Positions 49,641-50,172 of a stretch of 64,000 bases of DNA are shown one piece after another. The position numbers and the translations under genes are program-made. The DNA comes from Candidatus Nomurabacteria bacterium (GTDB taxonomy: Bacteria; Patescibacteriota; Saccharimonadia; Saccharimonadales; HK-STAS-PATE-42): NCBI GenBank assembly GCA_023898665.1, contig CP060233.1:289833-353832 (forward strand), written 5' to 3'. Under the pieces are notes generated by a model, which did no database searches, was not told the origin of the DNA, and saw nothing but the letters and a program-made list of their open reading frames with translations. Position 1 is the first letter of the stretch. The number at the start of each line of letters is the position of its first letter.

Positions 49641-49943
49641 ATATGTATCTTATAGAAGGGTTGACTTTATTGCATCTAATATGATAGGATGGTTAATGTA
49701 GGTAAGTTACTATAAAAGTGATTTACACTTATGTACTTATAAATACCGTCGAATTTTATTATTCGACAAAGGTTAGAGCGCTTTTTTAGAGTTTAGTTGG
49801 TCGTTTTTCCGGCTGGTTAATCTTTTTAAGTCTCATAGCTATTAACGAAGTTTACTACCCTCCACTTTAATTTAGCTGACTTAAATTTATAAGTTAATCT
49901 TTCGCTAAATTTATTTTACATATTTTTAGGACCAATTAGCTAG

Positions 49944-49999
49944 ATGAAAGCGCGCTAACCCCTTCAATTCTGGTCAGACTTATGGGTGGTCTAGGGGTT
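49944..49999 (+). ncRNA. Candidate small structured RNA/terminator element 1 (GAAAGCGCGCTAACCCCTT ... AGGGGTTTT)
   Basis: A 7 bp AACCCCT/AGGGGTT stem encloses a 29 nt loop and is followed by a T-run. There is no + strand gene upstream. Confidence 0.3.
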
Positions 50000-50065
50000 T
50001 TAAAGTACGGCGTATATTTTACCGTCACCGTTTAGGGCACTCGCTTAGTAAGTTTTCTGGCTTGA

Positions 50066-50172
50066 TTTTATTGAAGAAAGTGCTAATACCCCCTCAAGCC
50101 CGGTATTAATTCGATGCCCACCCTCGAATTAATACCAGCAGTTTACTCTGCAAGGCCGAAGGGGGTTTTTGA
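50066..50172 (+). ncRNA. Candidate small structured RNA element 2 (GAAAGTGCTAATACCCCCTCAAG ... GAAGGGGGTTTTT) with a perfect 13 bp inner hairpin
   Basis: Shares its 5' motif with element 1. The inner stem is GGTATTAATTCGA-N9-TCGAATTAATACC, the outer pairing is CCCCC/GGGGG, and a T5 run follows. Confidence 0.3.

Follow-up and report, generated by a model that had tools for sequence, protein, structure and literature searches.

Analyses of a 64,000-nucleotide (nt) stretch of the Candidatus Nomurabacteria contig CP060233.1 (hereafter the window) indicated that the 558-bp gap between dprA and pth (49641-50198) is very probably occupied by one independent non-coding RNA gene of ~475 nt, which is supported by covariation and predicted to be read from the + strand, opposite to the flanking genes. 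The first-pass annotation of this DNA had described the region as two tandem, related RNA-like elements, each ending in its own terminator. The features it listed were real but had been mis-parsed, and the notion of two related elements is unsupported. The strings given for element 1 (GAAAGCGCGCTAACCCCTT at 49946-49964 and AGGGGTTTT at 49993-50001) and for element 2 (GAAAGTGCTAATACCCCCTC at 50076-50095 and GAAGGGGGTTTTT at 50158-50170) were all located as quoted, as was a perfect 13-bp inverted repeat in element 2 (GGTATTAATTCGA at 50102-50114 and TCGAATTAATACC at 50124-50136, with 9 nt between the arms). In our consensus model, element 1 is the junction between the 3' strand of helix P3 and the 5' strand of helix P4, plus helix P6, and element 2 is the terminator domain.

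The predicted transcription unit

The same RNA element was found in 16 loci from related, Nomurabacteria-like Patescibacteria, which were gathered around DprA homologues (81-53% identity) together with one Pth-based locus, one metagenome match and one IMG/VR match. The -35 and -10 boxes of a promoter were invariant or nearly so, at fixed spacing, in all 16 loci. In the window this predicted promoter lies at 49661-49690 on the + strand and consists of TTGACT (49661-49666), an 18-nt spacer, an extended TG (49682-49683) and TAGGAT (49685-49690); in L021-L023 it reads TTGACA-17-TA(G/A)AAT. The promoter call rests on this conservation, because a single-site match in a sigma-70-type consensus scan is not significant by itself (2 found, 2.4 expected). 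A primary transcript of ~475 nt is predicted from the promoter and the terminator at 49696-50172 on the + strand, with its start near 49696. No open reading frame (ORF) was conserved in position across the homologous loci, and L005 held none of at least 30 amino acids (aa). The longest ORFs in the window gap encode 30 aa (- strand) and 36 aa (+ strand), in agreement with the first-pass description of a region without ORFs. As judged from the sequence, these features point to an independent transcription unit that has a promoter and a terminator of its own but no coding capacity.

The strand was assigned from the consensus helices, which contained 82 G·U cells against 8 A·C cells and thus indicate an RNA read from the + strand. 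Folding of the whole gap gave z = -5.95 for the + strand and z = -4.0 for the - strand relative to shuffles. The latter value, the position of all the flanking genes on the - strand and the A-rich 5' flank of the terminal stem could be taken to favor a - strand element, either an intergenic structure or a leader of dprA in an operon transcript of pth and dprA, or simple bidirectional terminators of these two genes. We consider such an element very unlikely, as it would carry 82 C·A mismatches in the consensus helices, and as pth is not the upstream neighbor in L003 and L008. The promoter and the U-run are + oriented in all loci, with no U-run after the stem on the - strand. Bidirectional terminators are contradicted both by this orientation and by the G·U versus A·C asymmetry, and a terminator needs no 475 nt of conserved, covarying structure.

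Conservation among related Patescibacteria

The RNA fills a gap of 500-730 nt directly upstream of, and divergent from, dprA in 14 of the 16 loci. Conservation spanned the whole dprA–pth gap, beyond the 233 bp covered by the first-pass annotation, and started 250 nt upstream of element 1. The profile match in the window covered 49645-50175 (E = 7e-129), and the element was present as a single copy within the 64 kb. The pth side was variable, as L003 has an extra gene there and L008 a different upstream neighbor, and in both the RNA stays beside dprA. The extra gene of L003 (1126-1983, - strand) lies between pth and the RNA gene, is co-directional with the RNA, and encodes a 285-aa product with no Pfam match.

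A series of ordered anchors was present in all 16 loci. The series begins with the promoter boxes at fixed spacing, TTGAC(T/A) for the -35 and TG-TAGGAT or TAGAAT for the -10, followed by G(U/C)AC(C)UUAUA, GUUAG-R and UACCCUC(C/U)AC (with U in L011 only). Further downstream come R-CUAACCCCUU(C/U)AA, UUGA(A/G)GGG, (A/G)UGCCCACCC and the terminal stem with its U-run. The predicted size of the RNA in the homologues was 388-507 nt, and the architecture was kept down to relatives with ~53% DprA identity.

Scanning of metagenomes with GTGCTA-N18-48-CGATGCCCACCCTCG returned one true match, L014, almost identical to L008, and seven chance matches in high-GC DNA. Scans of viral collections returned one locus, L023 (IMGVR_UViG_3300049064_000004), which carries the RNA (~7975-8365, + strand) without dprA, near methyltransferase, FtsK-like and RecT-like genes. 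The contig was classed as viral, and the neighbors of the RNA comprised D12 and C5 DNA methyltransferases, an FtsK/PD-(D/E)XK gene and a RecT-like gene. The RNA gene in L023 may border an integrated element, as tRNA and transfer-messenger RNA (tmRNA) genes often do.

Consensus structure and the fate of element 1

Covariation was assessed in an alignment of 11 sequences, with column shuffles (500) and slid alignments as controls. The consensus comprised 73 pairs, which were 94.4% paired across the 11 sequences. Of these, 29 had changed on both sides, versus 16.0±2.3 in the column shuffles (0/500 reached 29) and at most 12 in the slid controls. This covariation across the orthologous intergenic regions supports one structured RNA.

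All the structural features described here are on the + strand. In the minimum free energy fold, the 5' end forms the hairpin P1 (49702-49726, GUAAGUUACU with AGUGAUUUAC), and the homologues have a hairpin of different sequence at this place. It is followed by the conserved linker A1 (49733-49747, GUACUUAUAAAUACC), which has the family consensus G(U/C)AC(C)UUAUA and is one of the ordered anchors in the 16 loci, and by the hairpin P2 (49748-49767, GUCGAAU...AUUCGAC), in which 8/9 pairs had changed on both sides. A pairing of A1 with 49998-50008 was dropped, as it was not conserved in the homologues.

The first long-range helix, P3, joins 49772-49787 (GUUAG, a conserved unpaired purine, then GCGCUUUU) to 49944-49959 (...AAAGCGC-G-CUAAC), the latter being the 5' part of element 1. 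P3 was 98% paired, and GUUAG/CUAAC and the purine-purine mismatch were kept, while the remainder occurred as the compensatory variants GCGCUUUU, AUGCCUUUUU, ACGCCAUCU and, in L021-L023, UUGUUUUAGAGCG. The A3 hairpin (49847-49868) is supported by individual folds and by compensation. Its stem, GAAGU/ACUUU, carries an invariant 12-nt C-rich apical loop, UUACUACCCUCC (49852-49863), and is compensated in L010 (AGGU/ACCU) and in L021 (UAAGU/ACUUA).

The second long-range helix, P4, adjoins P3 without a spacer. Its 5' strand (49960-49968, CCCUUCAAU) is the C-run of element 1, and its partner, ~100 nt downstream, is AUUGAAG(AAAG) (50070-50080), of which 50070-50076 are paired. The family consensus of this partner strand is AUUGAAGGG. 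The last pair of P4 is U-A, A-U, C-G or G-C depending on the locus, and both P3 and P4 are maintained, by different sequences, in the distant L021-L023. The window is an exception in its P4 3' strand (50070-50082), which reads AUUGAAGAAAGUG where all the other loci have AUUGA(A/G)GGGU(G/A), so that P4 has only 7 bp there and CC at 49960-49961 is left free. The domain inside P4 (49978-50053) holds the GGGG and T-run of element 1. It consists of P6, in which GGGUGGUCUAG (49984-49994) pairs with UUAGGGCACUC (50032-50042) and GGU (49996-49998) with ACC (50027-50029), and of the hairpin P7 (ACGG 50007-50010 with CCGU 50022-50025). P6 was 98% paired, with 5/10 pairs changed on both sides, and 3/4 pairs of P7 had changed likewise.

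The covariation of these helices contradicts the stem and T-run drawn for element 1. Since P4 follows P3 without a spacer, the CCCC run of element 1 is split between the two helices, pairing with GUUAG... in P3 and with ...UUGAAGGG in P4. The 3' G of the stem proposed in the first-pass annotation (alignment column 453) is A in 6/11 sequences and covaries with column 497 instead, and the CCCC/GGGG stem is mismatched (C·A) in 6/11 sequences. In addition, L008 lacks the T-run, and L021-L023 lack the entire stem. Element 1 (49957-50001) therefore lacks the stem and U-run kept in relatives that mark an intrinsic terminator. The stem had looked convincing in the window because of GGGG instead of AGGG at 49994-49997, a variant that the window shares with L003.

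Two tandem paralogous small RNA (sRNA) genes, with their own terminators at 49999 and 50172, are consequently a highly improbable reading of the gap. A CCCC...GGGG+TTTT structure can be drawn for element 1 in the window, and a similar 19-20-mer opens both elements. However, local alignment of this motif scored 17 versus a null of 13.8±2.1, and 10.5% of shuffles reached the score, so the similarity is at the level of chance; its GAAAG part was not conserved in the homologues. Element 1 alone gave z = +0.19, with 100/200 shuffles folding as well, and its bases covary in P3, P4 and P6. No promoter was found between elements 1 and 2, and the one conserved promoter lies at the start of the conservation, 250 nt upstream of element 1. 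The two units also have different structural roles. The proposal of a structured + strand non-coding RNA ending near 50170 was thus borne out, but as one gene of ~475 nt and not as two paralogs.

The terminator domain

In contrast to element 1, element 2 folded at -39.3 kcal/mol when taken alone (z = -5.5; 0/200 shuffles as good), and of the two terminators claimed earlier it is the one that survived. The terminator domain (50088-50170) is formed by P8 (ACCCCCU 50088-50094 with AGGGGGU 50160-50166) followed by UUUUU. P8 was 95% paired across the 11 sequences, changed only via G·U pairs, and encloses P9 and a small hairpin at 50138-50151. The U-run after the terminal stem was present in most loci, on the + strand only, and was weak in L008, L014 and L023. 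On sequence grounds, this G+C-rich stem with its U-run, kept in relatives, has the makings of an intrinsic terminator. In the clade of the window, the stem encloses a 65-nt insert (P9 and P10) and would form a three-way junction; this insert is why a simple terminator scanner missed element 2. L021-L023 have a simple hairpin and U-run at the same place as the branched terminator.

P9 (50102-50136) is the perfect 13-bp hairpin formed by the inverted repeat, with an invariant 9-nt C-rich loop, UGCCCACCC, at 50115-50123. The perfection of this AT-rich palindrome had suggested a protein-binding site, that is, a DNA operator for a dimeric regulator of, for example, dprA or pth. The outer pairs of P9 covary (GC:5/AU:4 and GC:3/AU:2/UA:2/UG:2) and the loop is invariant in the 16 loci. 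As the arms differ yet stay complementary, including by G·U pairs, while the invariant part is the 9-nt spacer, P9 is better explained as an RNA hairpin. The site also lies downstream of pth, at a distance of ~480 bp from the start of dprA. A DNA operator is accordingly an exceedingly improbable explanation.

Searches against known RNA families

A scan of the window with Rfam 15 (4227 models) at gathering thresholds identified only a tRNA at 55788, and no family matched the gap. At E <= 10, the gap gave four weak matches, all far below the gathering scores; at E <= 1, nine homologous loci gave 0 matches. L021 and L022 at E <= 10 likewise gave weak matches far below the gathering scores, mostly to microRNA-precursor hairpins in L022. 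ARAGORN identified no tmRNA. In signal recognition particle (SRP) RNA, tmRNA, RNase P RNA and 6S RNA, the 5' and 3' ends pair and close the molecule. No 5'-3' end-joining helix was present in the consensus, whose 5' end is the local hairpin P1 and whose 3' end is the local terminator domain. The first-pass annotation had set aside all four of these RNAs by eye, a view with which the negative Rfam and ARAGORN results agree.

Several candidate identities were considered and rejected. A likeness to RNase P RNA by eye (GCAAGGCCGAAGGGGG; CUAGAUGAA) was not conserved in the homologues and had no covariance-model match. SRP RNA likewise had no model match, and both ffh and ffs are reportedly absent from Parcubacteria (PMC4508563). 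None of the small ORFs on the two strands was conserved, among them those with AUG or GUG in the P9 loop and one with a Shine-Dalgarno (SD)-like GGAGGG on the - strand. Literature searches on non-coding RNAs of the Candidate Phyla Radiation (CPR), Parcubacteria or Saccharibacteria returned no description of the dprA-linked RNA. More broadly, neither full-text literature searches nor Rfam 15 yielded a regulatory or large structured RNA already described from Patescibacteria (CPR).

C-rich loops and a candidate target

Both C-rich motifs, UUACUACCCUCC and UGCCCACCC, were apical loops in each of 15 homologues folded separately. Their unpaired probabilities were 0.82-0.98 and 0.81-0.85, respectively, compared with a mean of 0.30-0.37 over the molecule. 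The RNA is thus predicted to display exposed, conserved C-rich loop motifs of the kind expected of a riboregulator.

The hypothesis that these loops pair with other RNAs was set first, and the window, 64 kb of one genome, was then searched for complements. Apart from the RNA gene itself, the window contained the 10-mer GTGGAGGGTA at one place, 7 nt ahead of a TTG start at 13950. The predicted trans target site (13925-13953, + strand), which we regard as a candidate lead, comprises the SD sequence GGAGGG and the UUG start. The predicted duplex between the A3 hairpin region of the RNA (49845-49874) and 13925-13953 has 28 bp, one mismatch and one bulge (-35.6 kcal/mol). On the mRNA it begins ~25 nt before the UUG and ends one base beyond it, so that both the SD sequence and the start codon are covered. 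When 175 candidate start sites were compared, this duplex had z = -5.9, with the next best at -19.9 kcal/mol, and it also ranked as the strongest outlier when the whole RNA was scanned in 30-nt tiles. Of 300 shuffles in which CCCUCC was preserved, none reached -35.6 kcal/mol, the best being -31.5 kcal/mol. Complementarity to an SD/start region beyond chance was therefore found at one site in the window.

The gene at this site, 36 kb from the RNA gene, is a histidine kinase (HK)-like gene (HATPase_c; 13950-14660, + strand), which is followed by a weakly receiver-like gene, with a Pfam score below the cut-off, and then by recO. Its protein family, with 29 members at E <= 1e-10, is tiny and clade-restricted. 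The gene starts with TTG, and the position of this start is common to the homologues. Three of the 29 members (P0131, P0146 and P0147) are recorded on contigs equal in length to those that carry L006, L010 and L011, respectively. The H-box of the target protein and its homologues (P0121-P0149) is ISELQAPL, without histidine, in all 10 aligned homologues, and because of this the protein may be a pseudo-kinase.

A second complement was noted in the same window. The 3' strand of P6 (RNA 50026-50046) has an 11-nt perfect complement (GTGCCCTAAAC) at 39130-39165 (+ strand), near a candidate internal start at 39164 (-29.9 kcal/mol). Matches of equal length were also obtained from shuffled RNAs, and this complement was judged to be at the level of chance.

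A possible mode of action

The mechanism that we favor, at close to even chances, is that of a trans-acting, base-pairing riboregulator with C-rich loops. Transcription would start at the conserved TTGACT-18-TG-TAGGAT promoter (49661-49690) and end at the branched intrinsic terminator formed by P8 and U5 (50088-50170). The RNA would fold in the order P1 and P2, then the P3-closed domain presenting the UUACUACCCUCC hairpin, then directly the P4-closed second domain and last the terminator domain, with P9 presenting UGCCCACCC. The exposed C-rich loops would nucleate pairing with G-rich SD regions and block translation initiation. The candidate target in the window would be the HK-like gene at 13950, the first of the HK-like, weakly receiver-like and recO cluster.

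Several observations weigh against this mechanism. The transcript ends are predicted from the promoter and terminator, and the target was predicted in a single genome. When the whole RNA was scanned without gaps over both strands of the window, the result was marginal, with a score of 50 versus a shuffled maximum of 41.8±3.6 and 1/40 shuffles higher, so the significance of the target hinges on limiting the search to conserved loops and start sites. For the UGCCCACCC loop, no target at a ribosome-binding site (RBS) was found in the window, as the GGGTGGG sites lie inside ORFs. Finally, an RNA of 400-500 nt with two long-range helices and many invariant nt is more elaborate than most base-pairing sRNAs, and a ribonucleoprotein (RNP) or ribozyme would account for this elaborate structure no less well.

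The same single RNA gene could indeed encode an RNP scaffold or ribozyme akin to OLE, ROOL or raiA, with the loops as protein-binding or tertiary-contact sites and the match at 13950 fortuitous. We consider this unlikely. The large size (388-507 nt) would suit such an RNA, as would the two adjacent long-range helices closed by the invariant GUUAG/CUAAC and CCCUU/GAAGGG, the conserved purine-purine mismatch, the near-consensus promoter and the persistence of the architecture to ~53% DprA identity. Unusual RNPs are conceivable in organisms of this kind, given that Parcubacteria are reported to be without SRP (PMC4508563). In L021-L023, GGUGGG beside P4 is complementary to the terminal loop, and a pseudoknot there is possible. 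However, in the clade of the window the corresponding GGGUGG varies and covaries within P6, and this pseudoknot was rejected as a general feature. The loops are predicted to be free and not engaged, and no gene for a partner protein travels with the RNA, dprA being the sole linked gene, with L023 as an exception. Chance would also hardly yield a 28-bp complementarity to an RBS (0/300 shuffles). A wider proposal, that the RNA represents an undescribed class of large structured RNP or catalytic RNA of the Patescibacteria lineage, with a clade-wide housekeeping role in hosts of drastically reduced genome size that reportedly have no SRP, and with the C-rich loops as its functional sites, seems to us doubtful and improbable.

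Comparison with described RNAs

The riboregulator favored here would find its closest parallel in RNAIII of Staphylococcus aureus (514 nt). Both RNAs are of ~0.5 kb, with many hairpins and long-range, domain-closing helices. C-rich apical loops are conserved in each, including one within or borne by the terminator hairpin domain. In RNAIII, the conserved C-rich loops 7, 13 and 14 base-pair with SD regions, giving long duplexes that cover the RBS (PMC2837412); a long RBS duplex is only predicted for the dprA-linked RNA. Unlike RNAIII, to which it has no sequence or Rfam relationship, the dprA-linked RNA has no embedded peptide gene such as hld, and its host phylum is Patescibacteria. Its loops are 9-12 nt and invariant throughout, not just in a UCCC core.

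The sRNAs with C-rich loops, such as RsaE/RoxS, the Rsa RNAs and 6C, are roughly 60-200 nt with simple structures. The dprA-linked RNA, at 390-510 nt and with two nested long-range domains, differs from them in both respects, and their Rfam models were unmatched. The likeness lies in unpaired C-rich motifs in hairpin loops that target G-rich RBS, as in RsaE/RoxS and the other Rsa RNAs (PMC2790875) and in mycobacterial 6C (PMC6486639). The Rsa RNAs are described as Hfq-independent in expression (PMC2790875), and 6C is described as acting independently of RNA chaperones (PMC6486639).

With OLE, ROOL, GOLLD and raiA, large structured bacterial RNAs whose functions are at best partly known, the dprA-linked RNA shares its size, a dense, covariation-supported structure, many invariant nt and a clade-restricted distribution. 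It differs from them in architecture and host phylum, and it matched no Rfam model. As for canonical intrinsic terminators, element 2 resembles them in its conserved G+C-rich P8 directly before U5, and departs from them in the window clade by the 65-nt insert and three-way junction within the stem; element 1 is no terminator.

The RNA is probably important to its host, as 400-500 nt with a strong promoter take up a notable share of scarce non-coding space and are kept at ~53% DprA identity. The host genomes are tiny (~0.7 Mb), with few recognizable regulators. If the pairing with the HK-like, weakly receiver-like and recO cluster is true, it would be the first riboregulator-target pair proposed for Patescibacteria (CPR), and it would tie an RNA encoded beside dprA to a second recombination-mediator locus. 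As an RNP or ribozyme, the RNA would add a new class of large RNA. For either function, direct tests are made possible by the covariation-supported model and the invariant loops.

Flanking genes and further observations at the homologous loci

The gap is bounded at its 5' side by dprA (48783-49640, - strand) and at its 3' side by pth (50199-50825, - strand), with topA and der beyond them; all four genes are on the - strand. The dprA start codon and the -35 box of the divergent RNA promoter are only ~20 nt apart (49641-49660 in the window and the homologous positions), and several loci have a TATAAG or TAGAAT-like box on the - strand ~9 nt upstream of the dprA ATG. This spacing and the position of the box suggest a leaderless dprA mRNA and overlapping divergent promoters at 49641-49660.

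A gene call for 64 aa in L006 (2032-2226, + strand) lies inside the RNA gene on the opposite strand, has no counterpart in the other loci, and is probably a false call. In L022, two 48-nt direct repeats that are 98% identical (1805-1852 and 1910-1957) lie just 3' of the RNA terminator. Each repeat holds the palindrome GATTGCCAGTGGCAATC and a CACCCUCUU stretch, and a similar TTCACCCTCC stretch is found at the same place in L021. These sequences could be further small hairpin elements or terminators.

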